The position numbers were made by a program, and so were the translations under genes. From Planctomycetota bacterium (GTDB lineage: Bacteria > Planctomycetota > MHYJ01 > JACPRB01), in assembly GCA_016209705.1 (NCBI GenBank), contig JACQVR010000134.1:64194-128193 (forward strand): DNA of 64,000 bases. Direction: 5' to 3'. Positions 6,790-58,294 of the stretch are shown in pieces. A model generated the notes under the pieces. It was not told the origin of the DNA and made no database searches. It was given only the letters and a program-made list of their open reading frames with translations. Position 1 is the first letter of the stretch. Each line of letters opens with the position of its first letter.

Positions 6790-6820
6790 GTTACAAATAA
6801 TTTTCAAAAATAATCGTAAC
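6790..6820. repeat. 31-nt palindromic element GTTACAAATAA-N-TAATCGTAAC (family copy A)
   Basis: Inverted 10-bp arms flank a central TTTTCAAAAA. The same unit recurs at 6857, 6888, 42422, 52244, 58233 and 58264. Confidence 0.6.
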
Positions 6821-6856
6821 AGAATGAATCGTAGCAGAAGGTGGTCGGCGCCGAAA

Positions 6857-6918
6857 GTTACGATAAATTCTCAAAACTTATTGTAACGTTACGAAATATT
6901 CTCAAAATTTATTGTAAC
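6857..6918. repeat. Two tandem 31-nt palindromic units (GTTACGATAAATTCTCAAAACTTATTGTAAC and GTTACGAAATATTCTCAAAATTTATTGTAAC)
   Basis: The two units form a perfect head-to-tail tandem whose junction TTGTAACGTTACGA is itself palindromic. The second unit ends exactly at the TAG stop of the convergent OMP gene. Confidence 0.65.
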
Positions 6919-8114
6919 TACCAGGTGAAGAGAAGGGAGAGGTACAGCACATGGCGGCGGTAGTCCAACGTTTCGCCGGTGCCCGCGGGGGGAGCGGCGA
7001 GCGTGGCTTCCTGCTGGGCGCGCTCGTATCCCAGGCGGAGCTTCCAACGGCGTGACAGCCAGTGATCCAGCGACAGGCCGGCGATGTGCTGAATGTCCTC
7101 GCGGTCCCGGTGCTCCACATCCAGGAGCAAGTCGGAATCGTAGGCGCGCCTGCGCCACAGATACTCCAAGCCGAGCATCGTCGAGGAGCCGAGGACGTAC
7201 TTCACCGTCAGGGAGACTTCATCGACCGAATGGCCGCGGTCCACCGGCGTCACGCCGCGCGCGTTGGGATCCGCGACGTCGCCGTCGCCGTTGAAGTCGA
7301 TTCCCACGTCGAATTCGTTGAATATGAGGACTTCGTTCGTGACGTCGGCGTCCACCGGCGCATGCTCGAACTGAAGCGCCACCCCCAGGCTTTCATACGC
7401 GACCTCGAGACCGAGCGCGAACCCCAGCGCTTCCTCGTCGCGGCCTGCGAACGGCGGATCGTACGTGCGGTCCCGGCGTTCCACGCGCGCGATGGCCAGG
7501 ATTTCCCTCAGCGATTGGCGGGGGCGATACAGGAGATGGTGGCGGTATTCCAGTTCCAGGACGATCTCCCGGTACCGTCCTGCGGAATAGACGCGTTCGT
7601 CGTCGGAAATGGCCTCGTCTCCATTCGCGTCGGAGGCGTTCGACAGGTAGTTCTTCTCGAAGAGATCGGGCAGAAAACGGAAGGCGATCCCCAGTTCTCC
7701 GCCGGAACTGATCCCCTGACGCGCGCCGAACGCCGCCGTCAAGTGGTTCATGACGGGATTCTGCGTCTGAAGGTGGAATGCCGTCTCGATCCAGAGTCCC
7801 GCGCGAAGGCCGAAGGGGCTCCTTCCGGCGGCATCCAGCCGCCAGCGGGTCGAGTTTCTGAATTCCTCCACGCTCTCCATGTCGTCGAATCGGCCCGACG
7901 CCCGGTCGTCGGCGCGGCCGTCTTCGAGTCGCGACGCGCTTCCATGGTCCAGCGCGAAAACGTTGTCCGAATAGACGAAGTCGTTGCTCAGCTCCATCTC
8001 GTAGCTCCAGCTCGACGGCGTCCGGGCGTACCAGGGCTTGTGTTGCTGGAGGTCCTGCGGCGGCGCGGCCGAGGACGCCGTCGCGACGCAGAAGACGAAG
8101 GCGATCGAGCTCAT
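6918..8114 (-). CDS. Outer-membrane beta-barrel protein (hypothetical)
   Basis: The product has a signal peptide (MSSIAFVFCVATASSAAP), alternating amphipathic strands and a C-terminal aromatic signature (...YLSLLFTW). Confidence 0.6.
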   Translation of the reverse strand: MSSIAFVFCVATASSAAPPQDLQQHKPWYARTPSSWSYEMELSNDFVYSDNVFALDHGSASRLEDGRADDRASGRFDDMESVEEFRNSTRWRLDAAGRSPFGLRAGLWIETAFHLQTQNPVMNHLTAAFGARQGISSGGELGIAFRFLPDLFEKNYLSNASDANGDEAISDDERVYSAGRYREIVLELEYRHHLLYRPRQSLREILAIARVERRDRTYDPPFAGRDEEALGFALGLEVAYESLGVALQFEHAPVDADVTNEVLIFNEFDVGIDFNGDGDVADPNARGVTPVDRGHSVDEVSLTVKYVLGSSTMLGLEYLWRRRAYDSDLLLDVEHRDREDIQHIAGLSLDHWLSRRWKLRLGYERAQQEATLAAPPAGTGETLDYRRHVLYLSLLFTW

Positions 8115-8505
8115 GGGTGCAGGGAAAATATGGGGGGCATGTTAAACGCGGAGCCCGGCCCCGTCGAACAATTTCTTCGATGGGGATTTTGCTTTGAGCC
8201 CTCCGGCCGCGCCATTCAAACTCCCTGCCTCCAGGTTACCCTCATAAGGACGAACCGTGAGTGCCAGAACCCTTCTCGCGTGGGCGGCGGCATGGCTGGC
8301 CTCTCCGACGCTCGCGCATTCCCAGGAGATTCTCGTGGGTCCCCGCGCCCGCGGCATGGGCGGGTTCGGCGGCCGCGCTCGCTCCCGCGGGATGCGAGCA
8401 AAGAGCGGATATCCTGTCGATTCCGATCTGGTCCATTCCTCTTCGCATCTCCGTGGCTTCCGGTTAGAAAAGTGCTTTCTTGCCCTTCTCAAGAAAGGAA
8501 GCGGT

Positions 8506-10500
8506 TTGACGGTTGAAACGCACCCGAGCGTCTGCCCCCTCGATTGCCCCGACGCGTGCAGCCTGGAAGTGAACGTCGATCATGGGCGTGTGACGGGCAT
8601 CGACGGGAGCCGGCGCAATCCGCTGACTCAGGCGTTCATCTGCGCCAAGGTCCGCCGCTACGCGCGACATGTCTATGGTTCCGAGCGACTTCTCCATCCC
8701 GGCGTGCGTCGGGGAAAGAAGGGAGAGGGCGAGTTCTCCTCGGTTTCCTGGGATGAAGCGTTGAACCTCGTCGCGGAACGGATGCGGCGCTCCGCGGGCG
8801 AAGCGATTCTCCCCTTTTCCTATGGCGGCTCCAACGGGTTCCTCTCCCAGGACACGACCGATGCGCGGCTCTTCCGCCGATTGGGAGCGTCCCGCTTGGC
8901 TCGCACCGTCTGCGCGGCGCCTTCCTCGCGCGCGGCCGTGGGACTCTACGGCAAGATGCCCGGCGTGGTGTTGACGGACTACGTTCACGCGCGGCTCATC
9001 GTCGTCTGGGGCGCCAACCCCGCCGTGTCGGGCATCCACTTGATGCCGATCATTCAGCAGGCCCGCGCCCGCGGCGCCAGCCTGGCGGTTGTCGATCCGC
9101 GGCGGACCAAGCTGGCCCAGCAAGCGGATCTGCATCTCGCGCTTCGCCCCGGCACGGACGTGGTGGTCGCGCTGGCGGTGATCCGATGGTTGTTTGCCGA
9201 GGGCGCCGCGGACCTGAAATTCCTGGCCGCCCATGCGGACGGGGTCGAGCGGCTGCGGGAACGCGCGCAGCCGTGGACGCTGAAGCGCGCCGCCGAAGTG
9301 GCCGACGTGAGGCCCGGCGACATCGAAGCGTTCGCCCGACGGTACGCCGAAACGACGCCTGCCGTGATCCGCTCCGGCTGGGGGCTGGAACGCAACCGGA
9401 ACGGCGGCTCGGCCGTCGCGGCCGTCCTGGCCCTTCCGGCCGTGGCCGGCAAGTTCGGCGTCCGGGGCGGCGGCTACACGATGAGCCAATCGGGGGCATG
9501 GAACCTGAACGCCGAAGCGGTGATCGGTGAGCCCGAGCCTCCTACGCGCGTGATCAACATGAACCGTCTGGGGCGGGGCCTTCGGACGGCCAAGCCGCCG
9601 ATTGAACTGCTCTTCGTCTACAACGCCAATCCGCTGGCCACGCTGCCCGATCAGGAAAACGTTCGAGCGGGCCTCCTCCGGGAAGGCCTTTTCACCGTAG
9701 TCTTTGAACAGGTCATGACCGATACGGCGCGCTATGCCGATGTCGTGCTGCCCGCCGCCACGTTCCTGGAGCGAGCGGAGTTATGCGCCGGCTACGGCGC
9801 CATGGTCTTGCAGGCCTCGGACGCGGTCATCGCTCCCGTCGGGGAATCGCGGTCCAATCACGAGGTCTTCGCCGAACTCTGCCGCCGGACGGGCGTCGCC
9901 CGGCCGGGCGAGCCGGAAAGCGAGGAAGCGTTCGCGAGGGCGATCGTGGGAGACCGCGAGGAGTTGCGCGCGGGAGGAATCACGTATCCTACGGTCGGAC
10001 CCGACCCGATCCAGTTCGTGAATAGTTTCCCGTTGACGCCCGACCGGAAGATCCATCTCTTTCCGGAGGACCTCGATCGCGAATCCCCTCAGGGATTGTA
10101 CGGATACCGGGAAGATCCCGCGTCCGAGCCTTATCCGCTCGCGCTCATTTCGCCGGCGTCGGATCGGACGATCAGTTCGACCCTGGGGCAGCTCCGACGC
10201 GAGCACGTGAAGCTGGAAATTCACCCGGTCGATGCGGCGTCGCGCGGGATTCGCGACGGGGACAGGGTCCGTGTTTTCAACGCGCAGGGTGAAGTCCATT
10301 GCTTCTGCCGGATCAACGCGGATCTCCGGCCCGGCGTCGCGTATCTGCCCAAGGGCCTCTGGAGCCATAACACGCTCAACGGCACGACGGCGAACGCTCT
10401 GGTTCCCGACGCGCTGACGGATTTGGGAGGGGGAGCCTGCTTCAATGACGCGCGCGTCCAGGTTGTCGCAACAGCTCTTGATCCCGACCGCCGAATGTAA
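8506..10500 (+). CDS. Molybdopterin-dependent oxidoreductase (MopB superfamily with an N-terminal 4Fe-4S domain)
   Basis: A CPLDCPDAC cysteine cluster is followed by molybdopterin oxidoreductase and C-terminal molybdopterin dinucleotide-binding regions. The probable start is TTG at 8506, with an AAGGAAG Shine-Dalgarno 6 nt upstream; the six-frame ORF opens further upstream at 8257. Confidence 0.75.
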   Translation: MTVETHPSVCPLDCPDACSLEVNVDHGRVTGIDGSRRNPLTQAFICAKVRRYARHVYGSERLLHPGVRRGKKGEGEFSSVSWDEALNLVAERMRRSAGEAILPFSYGGSNGFLSQDTTDARLFRRLGASRLARTVCAAPSSRAAVGLYGKMPGVVLTDYVHARLIVVWGANPAVSGIHLMPIIQQARARGASLAVVDPRRTKLAQQADLHLALRPGTDVVVALAVIRWLFAEGAADLKFLAAHADGVERLRERAQPWTLKRAAEVADVRPGDIEAFARRYAETTPAVIRSGWGLERNRNGGSAVAAVLALPAVAGKFGVRGGGYTMSQSGAWNLNAEAVIGEPEPPTRVINMNRLGRGLRTAKPPIELLFVYNANPLATLPDQENVRAGLLREGLFTVVFEQVMTDTARYADVVLPAATFLERAELCAGYGAMVLQASDAVIAPVGESRSNHEVFAELCRRTGVARPGEPESEEAFARAIVGDREELRAGGITYPTVGPDPIQFVNSFPLTPDRKIHLFPEDLDRESPQGLYGYREDPASEPYPLALISPASDRTISSTLGQLRREHVKLEIHPVDAASRGIRDGDRVRVFNAQGEVHCFCRINADLRPGVAYLPKGLWSHNTLNGTTANALVPDALTDLGGGACFNDARVQVVATALDPDRRM

Positions 10501-12000
10501 CATTCATGCGCCCCTTGCGATGAACGACACCCACGGCGAGCGCCACGCTGCACTACCAGTTTGTGTTTATCACGAAGTACTGCAAGCCGGTCTTGAAGGG
10601 CGAGGTTGCGGTGAGGGCGCGCGACTTGAGAGCTATAACCGAAAGTTGTGGATGGAAGGATAAGGAAAGACGGCGTACCCTTGGTGCTGGAAACAGGCAC
10701 CAGATCTCTTTTCAGAGAAAGGATACGCCGCATGGGAAACGCTACCGGTTCGAGGAGGTGGGGTCCAGAAACTTCGGCAGGTGAGGCGCTGACGGATATC
10801 CTGCGCCAGGGAGCGCAACGACTGCTGGCCACCGCCATCGAGACGGAGGTCGCGGAGTACATCGAGCGGCACACGCACCTGCGGGACGACAAAGGACATC
10901 GCCTGGTCGTTCGCAACGGCCACCTCCCGGAACGAACCCTCCAGACGAGTCTGGGAAGCATCCAGATCCACCAGCCGCGGGTGCGGGACCATCGGGTGGA
11001 TTCGGACGGCCAGGTGATGAGGTTCCAAAGCAAGCTTCTGCCGCCGTACCTACGCCGGACGAAGAGCGTGGAGGCGCTGATCCCGTGGCTGTACCTGAAG
11101 GGGATCTCGACGGGGGATTTTTCGGAAGCCCTCCAGGCTCTTCTGGGTTCGGAATCTCCTGGGCTTTCGGCGACTTCCATCGTGCGGTTGAAGCAAGTCT
11201 GGGAGGAGGACTACCAGGTCTGGAGCCGGCGGTCGCTGGAAGGCAAACGATACGTGTATTTCTGGGTCGACGGGATTCACTGCAACGTGCGGCTGGAGGA
11301 AGGCCGGCCGTGCATTCTGGTCGTCATAGGGGCCACGGCGGAGGGAAAGAAGGAATTGGTGGCGATTCAAGACGGCGAGCGCGAGAGCGAACAGTCGTGG
11401 TACGAGCTTCTTTTGGATTTGAAGAAGCGAGGGTTGACGGTCGATCCCAAGTTGGCCACGGGGGACGGGGCGCTGGGGTTTTGGAAGGCGCTGCCGAAAG
11501 TGTTTCCGAAAACGCAGCAGCAGCGGTGCTGGGTCCATAAGATGGTCAACGTGTTGGACAAGCTTTCCAAGAGGGAGCAGCCGGCGGCCAAGGGTCTTTT
11601 GCACGACATCTGGATGTCGTCCACGCGAGAGAAGGCCAATAAGGCGTTTGATCATTTTGTGGCCGTGTACGCCGCCAAATATCCAAAGGCCGTGGAATGC
11701 TTGAAGAAGGATCGAGAAGAGCTGTTGAGGTTTTATGACTTCCCCGCGGAGCACTGGATCCATCTGCGCACGACGAATCCCGTCGAATCCACATTCGCGA
11801 CGGTCCGCCTACGAACGACACGGACGAAGGGCTCGGGATCACGGGTCGCCTGTCTGACGATGGTCTTCAAGCTCGTACAGATGGCGGAAAAACACTGGCG
11901 GTCGCTGAACGGGGCCAAGCTGCTTCAGGACGTGGTGAAAGGAATTCCCTTTAAGGATGGCATCAAGGACGCCGCCTGACCTATGCCTTCATCCACAACA
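10501..12000 (+). mobile_element. IS256-family insertion sequence (boundaries approximate)
   Basis: It carries an IS256/mutator-type DDE transposase gene and sits directly downstream of the oxidoreductase stop. Its right edge abuts a truncated ISAzo13-family transposase remnant. Terminal inverted repeats could not be resolved by eye. Confidence 0.6.
10732..11979 (+). CDS. IS256-family transposase
   Basis: The product carries the mutator/IS256 family N-terminal pattern (GEALTDILRQGAQRLLATAIETEVAEYIERH...) and a DDE region. The start is placed at the ATG preceded by GAAAGGA; the six-frame ORF opens at 10648. Confidence 0.75.
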   Translation: MGNATGSRRWGPETSAGEALTDILRQGAQRLLATAIETEVAEYIERHTHLRDDKGHRLVVRNGHLPERTLQTSLGSIQIHQPRVRDHRVDSDGQVMRFQSKLLPPYLRRTKSVEALIPWLYLKGISTGDFSEALQALLGSESPGLSATSIVRLKQVWEEDYQVWSRRSLEGKRYVYFWVDGIHCNVRLEEGRPCILVVIGATAEGKKELVAIQDGERESEQSWYELLLDLKKRGLTVDPKLATGDGALGFWKALPKVFPKTQQQRCWVHKMVNVLDKLSKREQPAAKGLLHDIWMSSTREKANKAFDHFVAVYAAKYPKAVECLKKDREELLRFYDFPAEHWIHLRTTNPVESTFATVRLRTTRTKGSGSRVACLTMVFKLVQMAEKHWRSLNGAKLLQDVVKGIPFKDGIKDAA

Positions 12001-12242
12001 TTTGACAATATCTCCCCGCCCAGCCGTCGCATTCCCTCCAAGAAGGTCACATTGTCCAGGCTCTTCAACTCCTGAATGCCCTTCAGAATCGTCGGACGAG
12101 ACATTCCGGTTGCCTCTTGAACCCGTGTCACACCACCCCAACCCAGTTCGATCGCCTTCTGAGCCGCGTACCATCGACGCTGCGGTTCGTTGAGGCTTGG
12201 CAACAGTCTACACCAAAGCTCAAGTGTGCCCCCTCTCTTCAC
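11925..12242 (-). pseudogene. N-terminal remnant of an ISAzo13-family transposase, truncated (probably by the IS256 insertion)
   Basis: The translation (LNEPQRRWYAAQKAIELGWGGVTRVQEATGMSRPTILKGIQEL) matches the HTH-containing N-terminus of ISAzo13-type transposases. Only about 100 aa remain and the frame runs into the IS256 right end. An AT-rich patch at 12240–12300 marks the other edge. Confidence 0.5.
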
Positions 12243-12261
12243 ACTTCCAGTATATCATACT

Positions 12262-12513
12262 TTATAATTTGTATTGTTTATGTTGACGAGACCCCTTAGG
12301 ATGGATCGGCTGCGGTAGGGTCACCAGCCGCGCCCGCAGGAGGAAGACGCCGCCTCGATAGACGAAGACGCGCCAGAGGTCGAAGGGAATATAGCGGACC
12401 TCGATGACGTCGCTGGCCAGTTCGGGCGTAACCTCGAATTCGTTGCCGCAGAGGCTGAAGGTGTGAACTTTGGAGACGCTGAGGTGCTCGCGCCAGAGGA
12501 AGATCGTCTCCAA
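12262..12513 (-). CDS. Short hypothetical ORF, possibly a gene fragment adjoining the IS remnant
   Basis: The 83-aa product has no recognisable domain. It ends in the AT-rich junction next to the ISAzo13 remnant. Confidence 0.2.
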   Translation of the reverse strand: METIFLWREHLSVSKVHTFSLCGNEFEVTPELASDVIEVRYIPFDLWRVFVYRGGVFLLRARLVTLPQPIHPKGSRQHKQYKL

Positions 12514-12595
12514 AGCATAGGGATCGGCATAGCAGCGACGTCTACCGCTGGCTCGGGCGGCATCGACGCCGACGTTGCCAGATTCCGAGTCATCG

Positions 12596-31332: not shown

Positions 31333-31422
31333 GAAGGCGACCGGTTCTCTTTCGATAATAAAAGCCTCCCGAAGGAGGCTTTTATTGAAACTCTATTTCA
31401 CATCCGGCGCACGGCTTCACGA

Positions 31423-40613: not shown

Positions 40614-40858
40614 AGTTGAAACCATCGGGAATTCGAGCCGCCGTCTCGACTCGATGACGCGCGTTCAGCCCATGGCGAAACACTTCCGCCGGTTCGAATG
40701 AAACTTTATTTAACTTACCCGGGCGCATGATACGCTCTTCCTTCCCGTTGCGAGGAAAAGTCTCTGGAAGGGCGAATCGAGCGGAGCACGTCGGCTGGGC
40801 GCCTCCTTTTTGTCGTCTGGATCCGGAAGTTCTTCGGTCGTAGGGCAATGAGGAGAAC

Positions 40859-40886
40859 TTGACGTGGCAAGGGTGGATTATATAAA
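40859..40886 (+). promoter_or_regulatory. Candidate sigma-70-type promoter upstream of the priming sugar transferase
   Basis: TTGACG, a 16-nt spacer and TATAAA lie in a locally AT-rich ~330-bp leader, about 65 nt upstream of the start at 40950. Confidence 0.3.
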
Positions 40887-40949
40887 ATTGAACTTTATGG
40901 ATCAGGGGCGGGAAACCGGCTTGACGACCAAGCCACCAAGGATCCGGGC

Positions 40950-42421: not shown

Positions 42422-42452
42422 TGTTACGATTAATTCTCAAAATTATTTGTAA
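42422..42452. repeat. 31-nt palindromic element GTTACGATTAATTCTCAAAATTATTTGTAAC (family copy C)
   Basis: Same unit as at 6857/6888. It lies between convergent genes and overlaps the 3' end of the MBL-rhodanese ORF. Confidence 0.6.
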
Positions 42453-43507
42453 CAGTCCCTCCAGCGGGCCATGCCTCCGGTGAGGACGCGGACGTTGGCG
42501 TGACCGGCCCCCAGCAGGATCTGCGCCGCCACCGCCGCTCGCATGCCTACCTTGCAGATCGTGATCACCTCGCGATCCTTGAATGGGGCGAGCTCGCCGA
42601 CGCGCTCCTCCAGCGAGCCGAGCGGGATGTGCGTGATTCCGTTCAGGTGGCCGAGCTCCCCCTCGAGCTCCTCGGGCTCGCGGACATCGAGAAGGATCAA
42701 TCCCGCCGGACGTTCCAGCCGCGCTCGCAACTCCTCGGCGGTGATCGAGGGCGCCGGAAAAGCGGCGGTATCCGCAGCGACCTCGCAGGCGCACCCCTCC
42801 TGGGGGATCCAGACGGCCTTGGGATCGCGGGTTCCCTCGTGGTTGGCCTTGAGCACCGCCTTCATCCAATCGGCGGGTCCGAGGCGCAGGGTCTCGAGGT
42901 ACCGGATGAACTCCGCCTTCTCGCGGCGACTGAGGTGGGGGTTCCGCTTGCCCTGGACGGCGAGCGTCGTGGGACGCCGGCCGCGATACTCGTGACCCGG
43001 ATAAACCACGAGATGATCGGGAAGGCCGAGGATCCGCTGCAAGCTGTCCCAGTGCTCGCCGGGATCGCCGCCGGGAAGGTCGTCACGGCCCGCTCCTCCG
43101 TCGTCCAGAAAGAGCGTATCTCCGGTGAGGATCCGATCGGGAAAGACGAGGCAGATGGAGTCCTTCGTATGGCCCGGCGTGTGCAGGACCGTGACGTCCA
43201 GATCTCCCAACGGCGAGGCCGATCCTTCGACGATGCGGGACGTCACCGACCGGGGAGAACCGCGGACGTGCATCACGTACGCGCAGCCGGTCGCCTCCTT
43301 CAGCGCGGTGCCGGCGGATAGATGATCCGCGTGGGTGTGGGTGTCGATGACGTGCGTCAACTTCAGGCGCTCGTTCTCGATCAGCGCGAGATAGTCTTCC
43401 AAGGCGTCCAACACGGGATCCACGAGGACTGCGTCGGCGGCTCCCTCCGGGCGGATCAGATACGTCTGGCAACCCCGGGAATTGAAAGCCTGGAATCGCA
43501 TTCCCAT
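42443..43507 (-). CDS. MBL-fold persulfide dioxygenase (ETHE1-like) fused to a C-terminal rhodanese domain
   Basis: A metallo-beta-lactamase metal-binding motif (HTHADH) is followed by a rhodanese catalytic-cysteine region (VITICKVGMRAAVAAQIL). Confidence 0.7.
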   Translation of the reverse strand: MGMRFQAFNSRGCQTYLIRPEGAADAVLVDPVLDALEDYLALIENERLKLTHVIDTHTHADHLSAGTALKEATGCAYVMHVRGSPRSVTSRIVEGSASPLGDLDVTVLHTPGHTKDSICLVFPDRILTGDTLFLDDGGAGRDDLPGGDPGEHWDSLQRILGLPDHLVVYPGHEYRGRRPTTLAVQGKRNPHLSRREKAEFIRYLETLRLGPADWMKAVLKANHEGTRDPKAVWIPQEGCACEVAADTAAFPAPSITAEELRARLERPAGLILLDVREPEELEGELGHLNGITHIPLGSLEERVGELAPFKDREVITICKVGMRAAVAAQILLGAGHANVRVLTGGMARWRDCYK

Positions 43508-45669: not shown

Positions 45670-45702
45670 GTCATGCTCCCTGTTCTATAGGGCGAAGGCG
45701 AG

Positions 45703-45775
45703 TGCCGGGAGACGGATTCGAACCGTCAGCCTACGGCTTATGAAACCGCCGCTCTAACCGTTGAGCTATCCCGGC
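45703..45775 (-). tRNA. tRNA-Met (anticodon CAT; elongator type because G1-C72 is paired; could alternatively be tRNA-Ile2/lysidine)
   Basis: The reverse complement folds as a cloverleaf: acceptor GCCGGGA/TCCCGGC, D-arm GCTC...GAGC, anticodon stem GCGGT/GCCGT with loop TTCATAA, and T-arm GACGG-TTCGAAT-CCGTC. CCA is not encoded. Confidence 0.85.
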
Positions 45776-50079: not shown

Positions 50080-50095
50080 TTGTTCTTTCAAAATC

Positions 50096-50735
50096 TGGCG
50101 GCGCCGTGACGGCGGCCGAGACGATCGCCCCCGCCCTTTCTCAAGCATTTTGCTGCTTCAATGCGTCTGGACCCCAAAGGAGGGTTGAGCTGTGCGGGAG
50201 ATAAGTGCTCAAGAAAGGGCGGGGGAGGAAAGTCCGGGCTCCACAGGGCGGGATGGTTCCTAACGGGAACCGGCTTCGCGCGGAAGCGCGAAGTCAGGGA
50301 AAGTGCCACAGAAAACAAACCGCCCCGCCCTTTCTTCAGCGTTTGCTTCTTCCGACGGGACCCCTCCGGAAGGGTGTATTTCCGTTCCGGAGAAAAAAAA
50401 TGCTCAAGAAAGGGCGGGGCAAGGGTGAAACGGTGCGGTAAGAGCGCACCGCGCCTCCGGCGACGGAGGCGGCACGGCAAACCCCATCCGGAGAAAGTCC
50501 AAATAGGTGCGCGGATGAAGGCCGGCCCGGCCGAGAGCGCACGGGTAGGACGTTGGAGGCCGCGCGCGAGCGCGGTCCTAGACGGATGATCGTCACCCCG
50601 CCCTTTCTTCAGCGAAACGCTTAGAGGAGAGCGCGCCCTTTCGGAGGGATGTCGCTTCGACGAAGTTTTCGCGTTGGAGAAAGGGCGGGGAACAGGACCC
50701 GGCTTATGAAGCCGCCGTCACCGCGCCGCTCATCA
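50096..50735 (+). ncRNA. rnpB: RNase P RNA (bacterial type A) with three greatly expanded peripheral hairpins
   Basis: The conserved regions are present: GGAAAGTCCGGGCTCC (CR-I), AAGGGTGAAACGGTGCGGTAAGAGCGCACC (CR-II/III), GTCCAAATAGG (CR-IV) and ACAGGACCCGGCTTA (CR-V). P1 is formed by GGCGGCGCCGTGACGGCGGC (5') and GCCGCCGTCACCGCGCCGC (3'). Roughly 100-nt hairpins occupy the P3, P12 and P18 positions. Confidence 0.8.
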
Positions 50736-50790
50736 TGCAAGGTCCCGGAACGTATATAAGGGTGAGGCGGCATTGCATCTGGAGGAAACC

Positions 50791-51483
50791 ATGAAGCGGC
50801 TGATCGGTTGGATGGCGCCGGCGGCGGCGCTCCTGGCGCTCGCTCTCTCGGCGAACGCTCAGGACGATAAAGAGGCGCTCAAGAAGAAGATTTTGGAGTC
50901 CGTCGAGAAGAAGCTGAAGGAGGAAGAGGAGCGCATTCTCAAAGAGGTCGCGAAGCTCATCGACGATGAGCTGGGCAAGGGGATGGGCAAGAAGTCCGAC
51001 GACAAGCCCAAGGAAGATCCCCCTCCGGCCAAGAAGGCGGGTTACCTCGGCATCCAGGCGGAAGAAGTTTCCCGCGAGGAGTGCGAGGAGCTGAAGATCG
51101 AAGGCGGGGTCCGCGTCTACGCGGTGCATCCCGACAGCCCGGCCCAGAAGGGAGGGGTGGAGGAAGGCGACATCATCGTCGAGATCGACGGCGAGAAGAT
51201 TCTCGATTTCGCGACGCTGCGGCCCGTGCTGCTCAAGAAGGGAGCCGGCGCCGGCGTGACGATGAAGGTGCTGAGAAGCAAGAAGTCGCGCGAGATCAAA
51301 GTGACGCTGGGCGTCCATCCGGAGGAGCAGTCGCGCGGCGTTCCGGAACAGCGCCCGAAGTCGGACCGGAAGGCCGAAGCCAAGAAGACCGAGGAGCCCT
51401 CCAAGGACGAATCCTCGAAAACCTCGAAAGGCGACCAGGATCTCCGCGAACGCCTGCGGAAGTTCCTGGAGAAGCAGAAGTAG
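50791..51483 (+). CDS. Secreted PDZ-domain protein with Lys/Glu-rich flanks
   Basis: A signal peptide (MKRLIGWMAPAAALLALALSANA) is followed by a PDZ core (GYLGIQAEEVSREECEELKIEGGVRVYAVHPDSPAQKGGVEEGDIIVEIDGEKI). Confidence 0.65.
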   Translation: MKRLIGWMAPAAALLALALSANAQDDKEALKKKILESVEKKLKEEEERILKEVAKLIDDELGKGMGKKSDDKPKEDPPPAKKAGYLGIQAEEVSREECEELKIEGGVRVYAVHPDSPAQKGGVEEGDIIVEIDGEKILDFATLRPVLLKKGAGAGVTMKVLRSKKSREIKVTLGVHPEEQSRGVPEQRPKSDRKAEAKKTEEPSKDESSKTSKGDQDLRERLRKFLEKQK

Positions 51484-51659
51484 CGGCGGAAACGAATCGC
51501 GGATTCGGCCTCCCGCCCGAATCCCCCTGGCTTTTTTCACGCGAACCTTTCGCGCCGGTGTGTTACTCTATCCGCTAGACGTTCGGGGCGATCCGACGTC
51601 AAATAATCGTTGGCCGAGTGACCCGTGATCGCCTGCTCTGGGGTGGAGAACGCCGTTCG

Positions 51660-52253
51660 ATGCCGGATCCCGCGGAAGTCGATCTGATCCAACGCTGCCA
51701 GAAGGGCCATGAAGGCGCGTTCCGCGAATTGATGGAACGCTACCAACGTCGGACCTACTGGATCGCGCACAACATGCTCAACAATTACGATCTCGCCCAG
51801 GACATTTCTCAGGAAGCGTTCATCCGCGTCTTCCGCAATCTGCGCAACTTCGACGTAAAGAAAAACTTCTACACGTGGCTCTACCAGATCGTCGTGAATC
51901 TGTGCATCGACCATCTGCGCAAGATGTCGCACGGGCGGACGGTGGATCTGGACGAGGTGGGAGGGTTGCCGGACGACGAGAAGCGGAACCCGCATGAAGA
52001 GTCCGGTCGCGCCGAGTTGCGCGGCCGGGTCCAGAAGACGCTGGATCGCCTTCCGCCGAAGTACAAGGCGGTCATCATGCTGCGCGACATCCAGGGCTTT
52101 TCCTGCGAGGAGATCAGCGAGATCGTCGGCTGCACGAACGCGACGACGCGGTGGCGCCTGCACCGGGCGCGCAAGCTCTTCAAGGCGTTGTGGACGGGCA
52201 AGCGCGTCGAAGCGGCCCGCGACGACGACGGCGACGCCGACCTGTTACAATAA
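51660..52253 (+). CDS. ECF-type RNA polymerase sigma-70 family factor (sigma-24/RpoE-like)
   Basis: Contains sigma region 2 (YWIAHNMLNNYDLAQDISQEAFIRVFRNLRNFD) and region 4 (LPPKYKAVIMLRDIQGFSCEEISEIVGCTNATTRWRLHRARK). Confidence 0.85.
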   Translation: MPDPAEVDLIQRCQKGHEGAFRELMERYQRRTYWIAHNMLNNYDLAQDISQEAFIRVFRNLRNFDVKKNFYTWLYQIVVNLCIDHLRKMSHGRTVDLDEVGGLPDDEKRNPHEESGRAELRGRVQKTLDRLPPKYKAVIMLRDIQGFSCEEISEIVGCTNATTRWRLHRARKLFKALWTGKRVEAARDDDGDADLLQ

Positions 52254-52274
52254 GTTTTGAGAATATATTGTAAC
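52244..52274. repeat. 31-nt palindromic element GTTACAATAAGTTTTGAGAATATATTGTAAC (family copy D, inverted orientation)
   Basis: It overlaps the sigma-factor stop codon and lies between the sigma and anti-sigma genes. Its centre is the reverse complement of the TTCTCAAAA centre seen in the other copies. Confidence 0.6.
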
Positions 52275-52361
52275 GGGCGGCTTCCCCGGGAGCGGGGTCC
52301 GCGAGGTTTCCAACATTTCGGGTGGAGTTCCGTACCACCTACAGAGCCGGAGACTTATTTC

Positions 52362-52979
52362 ATGGGTTGCGAGGACATGAAGGACCTGCTGGCGCTGGAA
52401 GCCGGCGGGGATGCTCAGCCGGATGAACGGATCGCCGTCGAATCTCATATTGCGGTGTGTCCCGAGTGCGCGCGCGAATTGACGGATTATCGCCAACTGC
52501 GCGCCGCCCTGGCTGAATTGCGCGAAGGCGCGGTGCCGTCCAGAACGTTCGAGCGGATCCGCGGGCAGGTCGGCAGCGCCATGAAGTTCACCATCGTCCA
52601 GCGCTCCACCGCCTCATGGTTCGTGCGCGCCGCCGCCGTGCTCGTCGTGGGCGTATCGGTGGGCTTCTCCAGCGCTTCGATCTATCGCCAGGTCACCCAG
52701 CTTCGGCCCGCGGTGGAAGCGGAGGATGGCGTCGCGGACCAGGACCTGGAAATGGAAAAGGGCGCCAGCAACGTTTCCGGCAGGCCCTATCGGACCGCCG
52801 CCGGAGCGCGCGGTTTCGGCATCATTTCGCCGCCCTCGGTACTGGATCCGCTCCGCGGCGGCTTCACGTTCCGCATCGACCGGACGCCGGAAGCCAAGGT
52901 GAATGATTCTTCTAAAGACGGCGTCTACTACCTCCCGCGCGTCGAAAGCTTCCCCGATCCTCATGAGGTGGATTTCTAA
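52362..52979 (+). CDS. Anti-sigma factor (zf-HC2 zinc-finger type, single TM segment)
   Basis: A H-x3-C-x2-C motif (HIAVCPECAREL) is followed by a TM helix (WFVRAAAVLVVGVSVGF). It lies directly downstream of the ECF sigma gene. Confidence 0.7.
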   Translation: MGCEDMKDLLALEAGGDAQPDERIAVESHIAVCPECARELTDYRQLRAALAELREGAVPSRTFERIRGQVGSAMKFTIVQRSTASWFVRAAAVLVVGVSVGFSSASIYRQVTQLRPAVEAEDGVADQDLEMEKGASNVSGRPYRTAAGARGFGIISPPSVLDPLRGGFTFRIDRTPEAKVNDSSKDGVYYLPRVESFPDPHEVDF

Positions 52980-52998
52980 AGCGGGTCCTGGAACCAGC

Positions 52999-54090
52999 AT
53001 GAACGCGCTCCTGTGGATGGCGCTGTCGGCCGGCGTCGCGTCGGCCGCGCAAGAGCCCCCCCCCTCCCAGGAGGAACCCAGCGCGCTCGAAAGGATCGAA
53101 CGCGACGTCGCCGCCGTCGTCGAGCGCGCGCGCAAATCCGTCGTTCAAGTCACGGTCCGTTGCGCCGCCATGGTCGACCGCATGCCGGTCTCCGAGACGG
53201 TGAAGCTTTCGGGCGTCGTCTATTCGGAGGACGGCGTCATCCTTACTGACGCTGGCGGCCTGGATTCGGCCGTCGAAGTGCGGGTGACGCTGCCGGAAGG
53301 ACACGAGACGTTCGCGACGGTCGTGGCGGTGGATCCCCAGACCTCGATCGGCGTCTTGCGCATCAAGGCCACGGGACTGACGCCGGCCGAATTTACGGAC
53401 TCCCCGGAAATCCGGCAGGGCAGTTTCGCCGTGGTCGTCGGAAATCCCATGGGTCTGCGCGGATCCTCCTCGGTTGGCTTCCTGAGCGGCACGGGACGCT
53501 CCATTGTGTGCCGCGGCCGCCGCTTCGACGACATGCTTCAACTCACGACTTCCGTCCAGCCGGGCGACTGCGGCGGCTTCGTCGCCGACGCGCGCGGCCG
53601 TCTGATCGGCATGGTGCATTCCAACCACGTCAGCCGCGCGCTCGATCCCGCGAGCATGAGCATCCTGATGCTCCTGGGCAAGAACGGGGCCAATTTCATG
53701 CAAGCCGGAATCCAGATGACGGCGTTCGCCACGCCTTCCAGCGTCGTGCGGATGGTCGCCGAACGGATCCTGAAATACGGCCGCATGGTTCGCGGTTGGG
53801 CCGGGCTGTCGGTGCGGCCGATCGATCTGTCGAAGCGGGAGCAGCTCGATCTTCCGCCGGGCCACGGCGGAGAAATCTTCTCGGTCGACAAGTCCGGTCC
53901 GGCCCGCAAAGCGGGCCTCAAGCGCGGCGACATCCTCCTGTCGTTCGACGGCGAACCGGTGAGCGATCTTCAGGCGCTTCGGTGGAAGGTCCAGCGGATC
54001 GAGGAGCCGCGCGACGTGAAAGTCGTCATCCTGCGCGGCGACGAACGCCTCGAAAAGAACCTTCGAGTGGAGCTTGAACCCCAGCCGTGA
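52999..54090 (+). CDS. HtrA/DegP-like trypsin-fold protein with PDZ domain whose catalytic triad is degenerate (predicted non-catalytic)
   Basis: A signal peptide is followed by an HtrA scaffold in which TNNH is replaced by TDAGG (no His), the Asp position by Ser, and GNSGG by GDCGG (Ser to Cys). The PDZ domain is intact. Confidence 0.7.
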   Translation: MNALLWMALSAGVASAAQEPPPSQEEPSALERIERDVAAVVERARKSVVQVTVRCAAMVDRMPVSETVKLSGVVYSEDGVILTDAGGLDSAVEVRVTLPEGHETFATVVAVDPQTSIGVLRIKATGLTPAEFTDSPEIRQGSFAVVVGNPMGLRGSSSVGFLSGTGRSIVCRGRRFDDMLQLTTSVQPGDCGGFVADARGRLIGMVHSNHVSRALDPASMSILMLLGKNGANFMQAGIQMTAFATPSSVVRMVAERILKYGRMVRGWAGLSVRPIDLSKREQLDLPPGHGGEIFSVDKSGPARKAGLKRGDILLSFDGEPVSDLQALRWKVQRIEEPRDVKVVILRGDERLEKNLRVELEPQP

Positions 54091-55220
54091 ACCGGGTTGC
54101 GTCGGCTTTGGCGTTTCTGGTGCTGCTGGCGGCCGGGATCGCGGGCGGAGTAGGCCTGAGCCAACGCTTGGAGCCGCCCCCGTTTCATCCCTCCGCCGCG
54201 GACACCGCCGCGGCGCTTCAGGCGGCCTTCAACCGCGCGGCCGAAACGGCCATGCGCTCCGTCGTTCACATTTCCACCAAGGTCCAATTCGCGTCCCGGG
54301 AGAACGTCGGCTCGGGCATCATCGTCAGCGATCAGGGTCACATCGTGACCAACGAGCACGTCATCCGGCTGGTCAAGGAGATCGTCGTGAGGTTCGTCGA
54401 CGGCGCCGAATATGAAGCCACTCTGGTGGGACGGGATCCAGAATCCGATCTGGCCGTCGTGAAGATCGATCCCGAAGGCCGCCCGCTGACGCCGATCGCC
54501 TTCGCCGATTCCGAGGCCGTGCGGGTGGGGGACGTCGTGTTCGCGATCGGCAGCCCGTTCGGATACAACCACACGGTCACCGGCGGCATCGTCAGCGCCA
54601 AGCATCGCCGGACCGAGCTCAATCAGCCGTACGAAGATTTCATCCAGACCGACGCGGCCATCAATCCCGGGAATTCCGGCGGCGCGCTCGTGAACCTGAA
54701 CGGCGAGCTGGTGGGACTCAATACCGCGATCGTCTCCCAGACGCGCGCCAGCGAGGGTATCGGATTGGCGATCGCTTCGGACCTCGTGAAATGGGTGCAG
54801 CAACGGCTGATCCGCGACGGGCGGGTGAAGCGTGGGTATCTGGGCATCGATTCCCTGGACGTCAATCCGAAAATCGTTCGCCAGGACGACCGGGTCCGCG
54901 GCCACCGCCGGTTCAAGGGCATTCAGGACATGAAGGACCTCCTGGAGGAGCTTGGGTTATCGGAAGCCCGCGGCGTGATCATCACGCGCGTGGAGGACCG
55001 CTCTCCAGCGGCCTCGGTGCCGCTGCAACCTCTGGATGTGCTGACGGAGATCGACGGCAAGCCGATCCGCAATCGCCATCAACTCTTCTTCCAAGTGGCC
55101 GAACTCGAGCCCGGCAAGAGAGTCAAATTGAAATACGTCCGCGATCGCCGCTTGCTGGAAGCGGAAGTCGAGCTGGCCGAGCGCCGTCCCGTCGACCCGT
55201 GGGGCGGCCCGCAGCGATAG
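54087..55220 (+). CDS. HtrA/DegQ-family serine protease with PDZ domain (canonical triad)
   Basis: A GTG start overlaps the upstream stop (GTGA). The catalytic residues are present: HIVTNEHVI, DLAVVKI and NPGNSGGALVNLNGELVGLNTAI. Confidence 0.85.
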   Translation: MNRVASALAFLVLLAAGIAGGVGLSQRLEPPPFHPSAADTAAALQAAFNRAAETAMRSVVHISTKVQFASRENVGSGIIVSDQGHIVTNEHVIRLVKEIVVRFVDGAEYEATLVGRDPESDLAVVKIDPEGRPLTPIAFADSEAVRVGDVVFAIGSPFGYNHTVTGGIVSAKHRRTELNQPYEDFIQTDAAINPGNSGGALVNLNGELVGLNTAIVSQTRASEGIGLAIASDLVKWVQQRLIRDGRVKRGYLGIDSLDVNPKIVRQDDRVRGHRRFKGIQDMKDLLEELGLSEARGVIITRVEDRSPAASVPLQPLDVLTEIDGKPIRNRHQLFFQVAELEPGKRVKLKYVRDRRLLEAEVELAERRPVDPWGGPQR

Positions 55221-55229
55221 ATGGAAGGG

Positions 55230-56078
55230 TCAGTTTCCTCCCTTCGTTTCCTCCACGACCAGGCGCCGGTAGCGCTCCATCAGAAGCCGCGTCAGCGCGC
55301 CCGGGCGCCCGGCGCCGATCTTCCGCGATTCCACGCGCGTCACGGGAACCAATTCGATCAGCGCGTTCGTGATGAACGCTTCCTCGGCGCGGTCAAGCTC
55401 CTTCAGATCCAGGCGGCGCTCGACCGTGCGAAGGCCCAATGAGCGGGCGATCTCGATGACGGCGGCGCGCGTCACGCCGGGCAGAATGGGCCCGAGCGAC
55501 GGCGTATGGAGCGCGCCGTCTTGAACGAGAAAGAGGTTGCTGGCGCATCCCTCCAGCAGCTCGCCGGAAAGCCCGATCAGGATCGTATCCGCGAAGCCGC
55601 CTTTCCAGGCCGCCTCGTGCCCGCGCACGTGTTCGAGATAGTTGAGCGTCTTGTGGCCGTGGAGCGGGACGCGGGGGTCGCGCCGCCATTCCGCGATCCG
55701 GACGCGCGCGCCGCGCGTGAGCCACGAGGGGGGAAGCGGTCGAAGCGGCCGCGCGCGGATCATGAAACGCGACGCGGCGGCCTCTTCGCCGCCCGTCAGG
55801 ACCAGGCGCAGGGACGCGTCCGGCCGGCGGCTCCGGACCAGGAGCTGCCGTGCCGCGCGCTCGATCGCGTCGTCGCCAAGGGGAAGCTTCAAGTCGAAGC
55901 GGCGCGCCGAACGTCGCATCCGGGCGAGATGCCGATCGATCCGGAACGGAACGCCTCCGTAAGCGCGCGTGACTTCGAAAAGGCCGTAGCCGTACTGGAC
56001 CGCGCGGTCAAGGGCGGGAACGAACGCGCGGTCGGCCCGCACGATGCGCCCGTCCAGCCAGACGAATTCGATGCTCAT
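55230..56078 (-). CDS. pabC: Class IV aminotransferase, probably aminodeoxychorismate lyase
   Basis: A 282-aa product with the class IV fold pattern (YGYGLFEVTRAY...). It lies in the same minus-strand operon as pabB. Confidence 0.6.
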   Translation of the reverse strand: MSIEFVWLDGRIVRADRAFVPALDRAVQYGYGLFEVTRAYGGVPFRIDRHLARMRRSARRFDLKLPLGDDAIERAARQLLVRSRRPDASLRLVLTGGEEAAASRFMIRARPLRPLPPSWLTRGARVRIAEWRRDPRVPLHGHKTLNYLEHVRGHEAAWKGGFADTILIGLSGELLEGCASNLFLVQDGALHTPSLGPILPGVTRAAVIEIARSLGLRTVERRLDLKELDRAEEAFITNALIELVPVTRVESRKIGAGRPGALTRLLMERYRRLVVEETKGGN

Positions 56079-56497
56079 GCGAACTCGATCACCCGAAGGC
56101 CCTCCGCGCGCGCCGCTTTGGCCTGCGGGCCGTCTCCCGTGACGAAGCGGATCTTGCGGGCGGACTCCCTGGCGAGGACCATGGCGGAAGCGATGTGGAC
56201 GGCGTCGATCCCCTTGAGCGCATGGTGCCGTACGAGCCGGACGGCCAGATCGATCTGTCCGATGTCCACGGGCACCAGATTGAAGTTTCTCAGATCCGTC
56301 CGGATCCGCTCCAGAAGCGCTTCCCGCATGCGGCGGTCGGATCCGGCCCGGCGCGTCACCGCCCCGGCGACTTCCGGCAGGAGCAGGACGGAGGCGAGGT
56401 GCGTTCGAGTTCGCGTCAGGAAATTATGGGCGCGTTCATGATCGGGTTCCCGCTCGACATAGGCCCGGACGAGAGCGCTCGTGTCCCAGAAGATCAT
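56075..56497 (-). CDS. vapC: Type II toxin-antitoxin system toxin, PIN domain
   Basis: The product begins MIFWDTSALVRAY..., carries the conserved PIN acidic residues, and is ~140 aa. Its start overlaps the antitoxin stop (ATGA) and its stop overlaps the pabC start. Confidence 0.7.
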   Translation of the reverse strand: MIFWDTSALVRAYVEREPDHERAHNFLTRTRTHLASVLLLPEVAGAVTRRAGSDRRMREALLERIRTDLRNFNLVPVDIGQIDLAVRLVRHHALKGIDAVHIASAMVLARESARKIRFVTGDGPQAKAARAEGLRVIEFA

Positions 56498-56778
56498 TCT
56501 CGGTCCGCGATGACCTGGTCCGACAACCCTTCGAGGGGAAAACCCTTGAAGGGCCGGATGCGCCCGCCTTGGCCGAGAATGAGCTTTCCTTCCGATGCGA
56601 GACGGCGAAGTTTCCACTCCAGCGCGGATTCACCGCGGATCCGGGTCGTGGCTTTTACGAGAACGGCTACGGGTTTGCCCCGGGATGTGACCAGCACCCG
56701 CTGGCCTTCCTCTACGGCCCTCAGCGCGCCGCCGAGGTTGGCTTGCAGTTCCCGAACGCCGTACGTCACGTAGCTCAT
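56494..56778 (-). CDS. Type II antitoxin (Phd/YefM-like)
   Basis: A 94-aa product (MSYVTYGVRELQANLGGALRAVEEGQRVLVTSRGKPVAVLV) lying directly upstream of vapC. Confidence 0.6.
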   Translation of the reverse strand: MSYVTYGVRELQANLGGALRAVEEGQRVLVTSRGKPVAVLVKATTRIRGESALEWKLRRLASEGKLILGQGGRIRPFKGFPLEGLSDQVIADRE

Positions 56779-56796
56779 GCATATGCAGTATATGCA
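56778..56796 (-). promoter_or_regulatory. Palindromic candidate operator abutting the antitoxin start
   Basis: TGCATATGCA is self-complementary and is followed by a GTATATGCA half-repeat. This is a typical position for TA autoregulation. Confidence 0.3.
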
Positions 56797-56831
56797 ACTC
56801 GACGCGCGAATCCAAGAAAATGCGATCGAGC

Positions 56832-58232
56832 TTAAGGATCCGTCGGCAGATCCAGCCCCAGGGCCCGCACGATGCCGGTCGCCTTGACCAGAGTCTCGTG
56901 GAACTCCTGCTCGGGATCGCTGTCGGCGACGATCCCCCCTCCGACCTGAAACCAGAGGTCCTCGCCGTGCCGCTCCACGATGCGGATGGCGATCGACAGC
57001 GCGACCCGTCCGTCGAATCCGATCCACCCGATCGCCCCCGTGTAGGCCGCGCGGCGCGTGGGCTCGATCTCGTCGATGATCTCCATGGCGCGGATCTTGG
57101 GCGCGCCGGTGATCGATCCTCCCGGAAACGTGGCGCGCAGCAGGTCGATCGCGTCCGCGTCGCGCCGGAGGCGGCCCTCGACGGTCGCCACGAGGTGATG
57201 GACGGTCGGATGCGTTTCGAGCGCTTTGGGCTGCGTCACCTTCACGCTGCCGAATTCGCACACGCGGCCGAGGTCGTTGCGCTCCAAGTCGACAATCATG
57301 GCCAGCTCAGCGTCGTCTTTGGGACTGGAAAGCAGCTCGGCCCGCAGGCGCTCGTCCTCCGCGGGATCCGCGCCGCGGGAGCGCGTTCCCTTGATCGGAC
57401 GCGTCACGACGTGCCGCTCCCGCGCGTGCAGGAAGAGCTCGGGAGAGGAACTGACCACGGCCCGCGCGCCCATCGATAGAAGGGCGGAGTAGGGGGCCGG
57501 GCTGGACGATCGGAGCCGCGCGTAGATGTCGAACGGGTCGAGCCGCATTCGGGCGTGAAAGCGTTGAGACAGGTTGACTTGATAAATATCGCCGGCGGCG
57601 ATGTATTCCCGGGCGCGCCGGACGGCGGCCAGGTACCCCTCGCGGGTGAAGTTGGACGCGACGGGCCGGTCACAGGCCCGCGGCGAGAGGGGCGGCCACG
57701 ATCCGAAATGCTCGTCGTACGCCCGCGGATCGATCGCGCGCGGTGGATCCCGCGGCGCCAGCTCGACCAGTCGTGCCCGGTTCGCGGCCCGGTCCAGCAC
57801 GAGCGCCCGATCATAGAAGGCCAGAAACAGGTCCGGGAAACCGCGATCATCCACGGCCTGGCGAGGGAGGGACTCGATCCTTCCGCCGAGATCATAGCCG
57901 AGATATCCCACCGCGCCGCCGGCGAAGGGCAGTCCCGTGTCGTCGTCCGAGACGGCGTGTTCCGCCAGCGCGGCGCGCAGAACCTCGAAGGGATCGCCCC
58001 GAAGCGTCCGCTTCCGGCCCGCGCGCCATTCCTCGATTCGATCGCCCTTGGCGATCCAGACCCGCGCCGGATTGGAGCCGAGAATCGTCCACGGCCGATC
58101 CGGCTGCGTCGGGTCGGTGTAGTCCAGGATGAACGGAAACGGTTGCCGCGCGAGGGTGGGCCAGATCGAAAGCGCGTCGCTCGGCAGCGTGACTCCCGCG
58201 GCGACGGGCCGGAACCGGAACGCAGAGGCCAT
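56832..58232 (-). CDS. pabB: Aminodeoxychorismate synthase component I (chorismate-binding enzyme)
   Basis: Chorismate-binding motifs are present (GDIYQVNLSQRF...PELFL...GSITGAPKIRAMEII...AYTGAIGW). Confidence 0.8.
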   Translation of the reverse strand: MASAFRFRPVAAGVTLPSDALSIWPTLARQPFPFILDYTDPTQPDRPWTILGSNPARVWIAKGDRIEEWRAGRKRTLRGDPFEVLRAALAEHAVSDDDTGLPFAGGAVGYLGYDLGGRIESLPRQAVDDRGFPDLFLAFYDRALVLDRAANRARLVELAPRDPPRAIDPRAYDEHFGSWPPLSPRACDRPVASNFTREGYLAAVRRAREYIAAGDIYQVNLSQRFHARMRLDPFDIYARLRSSSPAPYSALLSMGARAVVSSSPELFLHARERHVVTRPIKGTRSRGADPAEDERLRAELLSSPKDDAELAMIVDLERNDLGRVCEFGSVKVTQPKALETHPTVHHLVATVEGRLRRDADAIDLLRATFPGGSITGAPKIRAMEIIDEIEPTRRAAYTGAIGWIGFDGRVALSIAIRIVERHGEDLWFQVGGGIVADSDPEQEFHETLVKATGIVRALGLDLPTDP

Positions 58233-58294
58233 GTTACAATAAGTTTTGAAAATTATTTGTAACGTTACGATTAATTCTCAAAACTTATTGTAAC
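58233..58294. repeat. Two tandem 31-nt palindromic units (GTTACAATAAGTTTTGAAAATTATTTGTAAC and GTTACGATTAATTCTCAAAACTTATTGTAAC)
   Basis: The pair begins one base after the pabB start codon and ends at the TAG stop of rocA. Confidence 0.65.

Follow-up and report, generated by a model that had tools for sequence, protein, structure and literature searches.

A 31-nt palindromic unit at gene ends of a planctomycete contig is probably a lineage-private, REP-like miniature repeat

What is a short, A+T-rich palindrome, present in several similar copies, doing at the ends of genes in a G+C-rich planctomycete genome? The question is raised by a stretch of 64,000 nucleotides from a Planctomycetota bacterium (assembly GCA_016209705.1, contig JACQVR010000134.1, positions 64,194 to 128,193; hereafter the window, meaning the whole stretch analysed). 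An earlier note, made from the letters alone, had described a 31-nt palindromic unit and offered two interpretations, namely a site recognised by a dimeric regulator or a miniature mobile element resembling the repetitive extragenic palindromes (REPs). The first does not agree with our results. The second is supported by lineage-specific insertion, placement at gene ends, arrangement in dimers and arrays, and copies outside the window. We consider it probable that the units form a family of miniature palindromic repeats, non-autonomous and private to this lineage, of the kind of REPs or miniature inverted-repeat transposable elements (MITEs), inserted at or just inside gene 3' ends, singly or as zero-spaced multimers.

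The unit (consensus GTTACRAWWWATTYTCAAAAHTWWTYGTAAC, oriented by its core) occurs in seven copies at five loci of the window (Table 1). A degenerate pattern with up to two mismatches finds these seven matches and none in 100 dinucleotide-preserving shuffles, which bears out the numbers and the two orientations given in the earlier note. The coordinates of one copy (c4) had been placed one base too low (42422-42452 instead of 42423-42453), and the G+C content, put at 67% for the genome, is 64% in the window. With approximately 80% A+T, the units stand out as the main AT-rich islands of the window. The core ATTYTCAAAA is found on the plus strand in five window copies and on the minus strand in two; the orientation of c1 is ambiguous, since it is the most symmetric copy. 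Two pairs are zero-spaced, one head-to-tail (6857-6918) and one inverted (58233-58294).

Together with two copies on an independent contig (c8 and c9, see below), nine copies can be compared. They differ from each other at 1-7 positions and share 20 invariant columns (1-5, 7, 11-13, 15-20, 27-31). Of the remaining columns, 8-10 and 22-25 contain only A or T, while columns 6, 14, 21 and 26 are R, Y, H and Y, respectively. The termini GTTACRA and TYGTAAC are invariant or nearly so and enclose a non-coding core, whose conserved sequence is asymmetric. The description as 10-bp inverted arms around an 11-bp core stands in part: the outer 7 bp are consistently complementary, and the inner three positions are merely A/T, with 16 of 27 cells paired, near chance. 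A more accurate description is an imperfect palindrome of 15-1-15 with C16 as its centre. The palindrome is register-specific (85.6% of cells paired, compared to 32-57% with the partner slid), and the high pairing is explained by column composition, as shuffles average 83.5%. Adjacent to c1, a 13-nt sequence spanning the right end of the unit and its flank is locally duplicated (AATCGTAACAGAA at 6812-6824 and AATCGTAGCAGAA at 6827-6839, plus strand), probably by slippage following insertion.

Table 1. Coordinates, in the window, of the 31-nt units and of other features
Feature	Positions	Strand	Remarks
c1	6790-6820	+	GTTACAAATAATTTTCAAAAATAATCGTAAC; solitary, between convergent genes, 47 nt past the stop codon of the response-regulator/DUF4388 gene
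c2	6857-6887	+	head-to-tail partner of c3
c3	6888-6918	+	ends on the G of the TAG stop codon of the minus-strand 398-aa gene
c4	42423-42453	+	between convergent genes; overlaps the 3' end of the MBL-fold/rhodanese gene
c5	52244-52274	-	between the ECF sigma gene and the zf-HC2 anti-sigma gene
c6	58233-58263	-	inverted partner of c7; adjoins the ATG of the pabB-like gene
c7	58264-58294	+	last base is the G of the pruA TAG stop codon
IS200/IS605-type Y1 (HUH) transposase remnant	10533-10630	+	approximately 30-aa N-terminal part, decayed; truncated by the IS256-family element
Intact IS256/Mutator-family element	terminal inverted repeats 10630-10662 and 11982-12014; transposase 10648-11979		PF00872, E 1e-62
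Helix-turn-helix fragment	about 12020-12200	-	insertion-sequence debris cluster 10500-12520
Mu-transposase C-terminal fragment	12262-12513		PF09299, E 1.7e-4; debris cluster 10500-12520
tRNA-Met (CAT)	45702-45775	-	
RNase P RNA, class A, bacterial	50186-50639	+	230 bits

The placement of the units relative to genes is not random. We built a gene map of approximately 50 window genes from codon-position G+C content, Pfam matches and gene calls on Logan contigs; the non-coding share of the window is approximately 7%. Every copy is either extragenic or overlaps at most 11 nt of the 3' end of a gene. Random 31-nt placements overlap coding sequence to so small an extent in 6.5% of cases, and for five independent loci this corresponds to p about 1e-6. 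A stop codon is touched at four of the five loci, compared to an expectation of approximately 15% for extragenic placements (0.0097/0.065; binomial, about 0.002). As the earlier note had stated, the two pairs end on a TAG stop codon; the last base of c3 and c7 is its G, while c4 and c5 contain a TAA. The MBL-fold/rhodanese gene, on the minus strand, has its final 2.7 codons (C-Y-K) and its TAA (42443-42445) inside c4. The domain itself is complete, and the short CYK* tail is partly encoded by the unit; the tails of homologues are variable and of similar length. Likewise, c5 supplies a Leu and a Gln codon and the TAA (52251-52253) of the ECF sigma gene, and is separated from the anti-sigma start by 88 nt. 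The position between the two genes had been recognised before, and the sigma stop codon lies inside the unit. The pair c6/c7 exactly fills the 61-nt gap between the TAG of pruA and the ATG of pabB (58230-58232, minus strand). The polarity of the units is identical at all five touched gene ends, with the sense strand reading GTTACAWWA...TTTTGAGAAT (two-sided p = 0.06), and in this polarity most copies have stop codons in all three frames. Directly outside the units, 11 of 12 ends have an A or T (p about 1e-4).

The genes that flank the units have no common function. A Pfam scan identifies a response regulator with DUF4388 facing a 398-aa gene (locus 1), a sugar transferase facing the MBL-fold/rhodanese gene (locus 2), an ECF sigma gene upstream of its zf-HC2 anti-sigma gene (locus 3), and pruA (58294-59955) followed by a pabB-like chorismate-binding gene, both on the minus strand (locus 4). 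The 398-aa open reading frame (6918-8114, minus strand) has good codon bias and no Pfam match; its former label as an outer-membrane protein is not verified. The gaps are convergent in two cases, co-directional in two and divergent in none, the absence of divergent gaps being not significant with five loci. The gene pruA (previously 'rocA'), which had been described as convergent, is co-directional with pabB.

The units are real DNA and not an artefact of a metagenome-assembled genome (MAG), since independent assemblies agree. The region of c4 is present in the Logan assemblies of SRR12113390 and SRR12113401 with 99.98-100% identity to the window, unit included, and a Logan contig of the former run (L021) identically reproduces c2 and c3. 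This contig is 100% identical to window positions 9480-6856, through c3 and c2, and diverges exactly at the outer edge of c2 (6856/6857). Past c2 it continues with a T, two new units (c8 and c9) and an SCO1/DUF420-like gene, whose G+C content at third codon positions (0.83) corresponds to the codon bias of the source genome and whose last two codons and TAA lie inside c9. The insertions are modular, in steps of 31 nt, and on L021 four units form an array (c3, c2, c8, c9). When L021 2626-3707 is compared to window positions 6743-6856, the new units and the SCO1-like gene replace c1 and the response-regulator gene. The junction reflects either a real rearrangement at the units or a join of the k = 31 assembly graph via an identical unit, and copies outside the window follow from L021 under either explanation. 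The recurrence outside the window is addressed indirectly, by these two extra copies; the approximately 68 kb of the genome that were read contain nine in all. Other Logan contigs of the source organism, which extend 2.9 kb past the window, contain no copy, and the contig L024 ends short of locus 1.

Beyond the source genome, which is not part of the scanned collections, the unit was not detected. The pattern GTTAC-N5-ATTYTCAAAA-N6-GTAAC has one match in 185,579 species genomes and six in JGI metagenomes, all of them chance matches in low-GC, unrelated contexts, and no match in the viral contigs of IMG/VR. The four-unit array has no similarity to plasmid records.

A more direct comparison is provided by four relative lineages (L008-L012, L013, L014 and L015/16), whose pruA is 74-78% identical to that of the window. 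All of them keep the synteny of pruA-pabB-pabC, as well as the wider gene order (cmk / pruA-pabB-pabC ... ECF sigma/anti-sigma/proteases). Their pruA-pabB spacers are GC-rich and measure 8, 9, 21 and 46 nt; the unit is missing from all of them. At the window junction, AAGAAGTAG passes straight into two units that end at the pabB ATG. The sigma proteins of the relatives end in ...DELV* and ...EEL*, with GAA CTG TAG in L013 and GAC CTG TTA CAA TAA in the window. A profile of the copies has no match, and identifies no decayed copy, in approximately 60 kb of the relatives' DNA. Since the units are absent at the orthologous pruA-pabB and sigma/anti-sigma junctions, a comparison that the earlier note had suggested, we regard them as lineage-specific insertions at gene ends.

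Two further observations concern the same operon. In L015 (7764-7802) and L016 (2402-2440), the pruA-pabB junction contains a different AT-rich insert of about four tandem 8-mers (AAGCTATA AGCTATA AGCTTCA AGCTTTA); AT-rich repeats may be tolerated at this junction. In the window, a pair of genes for a Phd/YefM antitoxin and a PIN-domain toxin is located between pabB and pabC (56075-56778, minus strand); as pabB and pabC are adjacent in L008, L013 and L014, the pair is another lineage-specific insertion in this operon.

With respect to known systems, the closest likeness is to REPs. REPs are 20-40 nt long, form head-to-head, tail-to-tail and head-to-tail dimers as well as clusters, can provide flanking open reading frames with a stop codon, and occur in Planctomycetes (PMC3733652; PMC3184786), where they have been described in R. 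baltica and form species-specific families (PMC3733652). The units share with REPs, BIMEs and REPINs the size class, the imperfect palindrome, the placement strictly outside genes or at gene ends, the occurrence as single copies, dimers and clusters, the absence of a target-site duplication (TSD) and termini that supply stop codons; the inverted dimer c6/c7, which folds into a long hairpin, resembles a REPIN. Compared to the features of the classical GTAG/CGTC super-families (Di Nocera 2013), the unit is a short multi-copy palindrome located extragenically or at 3' ends, with dimers and clusters, and it possesses neither an unpaired GTAG/CGTC tag nor a stable G-C-rich stem-loop. Classical REPs also number tens to thousands per genome and accompany a cognate transposase gene that is flanked by the repeats. 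Where REPs have G+C-rich stems and a tag, the units are AT-rich within a 64%-GC genome, pair consistently over only 7 bp around a 'loop' of 11-17 nt, and form dimers that are always zero-spaced. Moreover, either strand of the unit begins with the same terminus, GTTAC, so that head and tail differ only by the core, unlike in REPs.

Several other families have partial similarities. Bacterial MITEs such as the Correia/NEMIS elements of Neisseria likewise consist of terminal inverted repeats around a short core, and are non-autonomous, intergenic and lineage-specific, alter the ends of open reading frames and contain promoter-like sequences. The unit has such repeats around a non-coding core as well; it differs by a length of 31 bp instead of about 100-400 bp, by the absence of a TSD, and by ends that do not correspond to those of a parent insertion sequence, as looked for in the window, whose sole intact insertion sequence has unrelated terminal inverted repeats. 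The units are therefore distinct from classical REPs, because the tag and the G+C-rich stems are lacking, and from MITEs, because TSD and size do not agree. Mycobacterial interspersed repetitive units (MIRUs), reportedly described by Supply and colleagues in 1997, are short tandem units in intercistronic gaps of operons whose ends overlap the flanking stop and start codons, similar to c6/c7, which overlap or abut the stop of pruA and the start of pabB. MIRUs, however, are direct, non-palindromic, GC-rich repeats of 40-100 bp, whereas the units are palindromic, AT-rich, found in both orientations and also located between convergent genes. The PATEs derived from IS200/IS605 elements are comparable in that they lack a TSD, require no long terminal inverted repeats and have hairpin-capable ends, and a tnpA remnant is present in the window. 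However, no sequence link between this remnant and the units was found, PATEs are longer, and the units have no conserved 4-5-nt target on their 5' side, only a preference for A/T flanks. Finally, the uptake sequences of Neisseria (DUS) and Pasteurellaceae (USS) are short, over-represented, lineage-specific and often found as inverted pairs downstream of genes, but they originate in situ and are frequent within genes; the units are whole 31-nt inserts, none of them within coding sequence. Taken together, the family is most likely REP-like in behaviour, yet a distinct variant that is private to one uncultured planctomycete lineage.

Marks of mobility were sought in the flanks and among the window genes. 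No TSD was found, the flanks of every unit or array being identical over 0-1 nt at most, and no conserved target word. The Y1 remnant (Table 1) has a Pfam Y1_Tnp E-value of 0.012, below the cut-off, and matches PDB 2ec2 with an E-value of 0.0055. It indicates, at most, that HUH transposases were once present in this genome, and does not extend to a link with the units. The cleavage words of IS608, TTAC and TCAA, both occur in the unit, a resemblance that was set aside as possibly coincidental.

A number of findings weigh against the interpretation as a REP- or MITE-like mobile repeat. No mobilising enzyme was found, in particular no REP-associated tyrosine transposase (RAYT) among the approximately 50 window genes scanned, and the IS256-family element was rejected as the parent insertion sequence, its terminal inverted repeats being unrelated to the unit. 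GTAG is found at two of 12 outer ends (in both cases a TAG stop codon after G) and CGTC at none, G+C-rich stems are lacking and single units fold weakly, and an element of 31 bp without TSD is not a conventional MITE. Covariation across the copies is absent, the observed score being reached by 223 of 500 shuffles. The window contains no decayed or intermediate copies (the next best site has nine mismatches), which, like the A/T-only variation of the inner arms, also fits selection on a function for the host. In addition, only nine copies are known in total, and with 74-78% protein identity the relatives are distant enough that the apparent insertion could in principle be the replacement of a fast-evolving spacer.

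If the units are mobile, their spread would depend on an enzyme acting in trans, with the invariant termini (GTTAC/GTAAC) and the core (ATTYTCAAAA) as its recognition sequences. A single-strand transposase of the HUH/Y1 type would agree with the missing TSD and with ends that can form hairpins. It is known that REPs are mobilised by the Y1/HUH enzyme superfamily, and that HUH-mobilised elements (IS200/IS605, REP/RAYT) generate no TSD. Copies would persist only where they are nearly harmless, that is, at gene ends, where translation meets a stop codon of the AT-rich unit within about 10 nt. As probable side effects, a large hairpin and a promoter-like sequence would arise between pruA and pabB, and the units would offer substrates for recombination.

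The main rival explanation is a signal selected by the host at gene ends, such as a binding site for a nucleoid-associated or termination protein, a stabiliser of mRNA 3' ends, an insulator or a backup stop, spread by duplication, recombination or gene conversion instead of transposition. We judge it unlikely, although several of the above findings are in its favour: the common polarity at all five touched gene ends with stop codons in three frames in most copies, the 20 invariant positions beside A/T-only variation, which suggest that sequence and AT-richness are constrained, and the absence of decayed copies. The search for terminators adds to this. None of the units coincides with an intrinsic terminator (a G+C hairpin with U-tract), the unit stems being A+T-rich and without a T-run. 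Canonical terminator-like sites are also absent from 6000-8000 and 51500-59000, compared to 1.8 and 5.7 expected in shuffles, respectively; the source genome may make little use of such terminators, and other end signals might serve instead. The folding of the units, however, points in the other direction. Single units fold with -0.8 to -7.8 kcal/mol, the weaker-folding strand being the one that is transcribed with the abutting gene. For the inverted pair c6/c7, the predicted structure is a hairpin over all 62 nt, with about -26 kcal/mol and a z-score of about -9.6. A scan of the window with Rfam 15 gives nothing at the units, the gathering score being reached by the RNase P RNA and one tRNA only, and the absent covariation is a further argument against a selected structure. 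Of the approximately 50 window genes, four have a stop codon that touches a unit. The unit is also missing at the same gene ends of all relatives examined and from the other genomes and metagenomes scanned, whereas a useful signal is expected to be older and more widespread.

A different possibility, distinctly doubtful in our view, is that the units represent a new super-family, untagged and AT-rich, with symmetric termini and zero-spaced concatemers, which integrates with fixed polarity at the last codons or the stop codon and carries its own in-frame stop, by a mechanism unlike that of REP/RAYT systems or TSD-forming MITEs. The mechanism could then rely on an HUH enzyme that prefers A/T flanks, or on recognition of AT-rich contexts around stop codons in a chromosome that is otherwise GC-rich.

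The view of the unit as an operator, with the 10-11-10 palindrome bound by a dimeric transcription factor that controls the adjacent genes, is very improbable: the neighbouring genes share no function, and the convergent gaps at two loci offer no promoter that could be regulated. It would account for the register-specific symmetry, for the copy between the sigma and anti-sigma genes, and for the pair directly upstream of pabB, in which one sigma-70-like match (TTGAGA, 18 nt, AATAAT; 10/12) faces pabB. On the other hand, the sites are not found in the promoters of linked genes or in a divergent promoter gap and overlap stop codons instead, and they are not conserved at orthologous positions, relatives with the same operon structure lacking the unit. 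An asymmetric core and approximately 20 of 31 invariant positions contain far more information than a dimer would need, and zero-spaced multimers occur in both relative orientations.

The sigma-70-like match, whose -10 element ends about 20 nt upstream of the pabB ATG and is to be read with the caveat that the consensus of the planctomycete host may differ, also suggests a portable promoter or expression module, in which AT-rich units provide promoters or unstructured translation-initiation regions within a GC-rich, Shine-Dalgarno-poor genome. That the units replace the entire pruA-pabB spacer and adjoin the ATG, and that c5 is located upstream of the anti-sigma gene, is consistent with such a role. 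We nevertheless consider it highly improbable, as a promoter-like match exists at only one of the five loci, the two convergent loci have no downstream gene, and c5 is 88 nt away from the anti-sigma start. The suspicion of adapter or k-mer chimeras, raised by a unit length equal to a common assembler k (31) and by a MAG as the source, is refuted by the agreement of the assemblies at locus 2 and at c2/c3, by differences of 1-7 positions between copies, and by a precise extragenic placement with frames kept and stops supplied by the unit, which random chimeras would not produce.

Several known sites were also compared and rejected. The unit end ATTGTAAC resembles the core of the E. coli Ter site (GTTGTAAC), but copy number, the presence of both orientations and the phylum argue against this identity. 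In the attC sites of integrons, the AAC and GTT core sites follow each other in the reverse order. The ATAA...TTAT of Xer/dif sites is present, but the 11-nt centre is too long. A LacI-type operator at the TGTAACGTTACA junction was dismissed, this sequence being found only in dimers, and Fur/Zur boxes were dismissed for the wrong genomic context.

Apart from the units, the window is characterised by a large exopolysaccharide and PEP-CTERM-exosortase cluster at approximately 12600-42400, with genes for glycosyltransferases, a Wzx-like flippase, a Poly_export/SLBB protein, the exosortase EpsH, a TPR protein, a PEP-CTERM protein and sugar-nucleotide enzymes. The G+C content is lower (0.59-0.60) at 10-14, 32-36 and 38-42 kb. 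Three further AT-rich islands (31379-31404, 40692-40718 and 40872-40905) are located in intergenic gaps of the polysaccharide cluster and have in common a TGAAACTYTATTT-like word, which is unrelated to the 31-nt unit and may be a promoter or regulatory motif. The remaining transposase fragments and structural RNAs are listed in Table 1.

Small palindromic repeats influence the expression of operons, the ends of mRNAs and the rearrangement of genomes, and have been described mainly in Proteobacteria, as G+C-rich hairpins tagged with GTAG/CGTC. In the genome considered here, the units change the annotated C-termini of an ECF sigma factor, an MBL-rhodanese protein and an SCO1-like protein, and they part pruA and pabB, which are tightly linked in the relatives. 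For practical purposes, they may break or mis-join assemblies built with k = 31. If their spread can be tied to an enzyme, the units would extend the range of sequences known for REP-type elements and provide a clean case of insertion that is tolerated only at gene ends.

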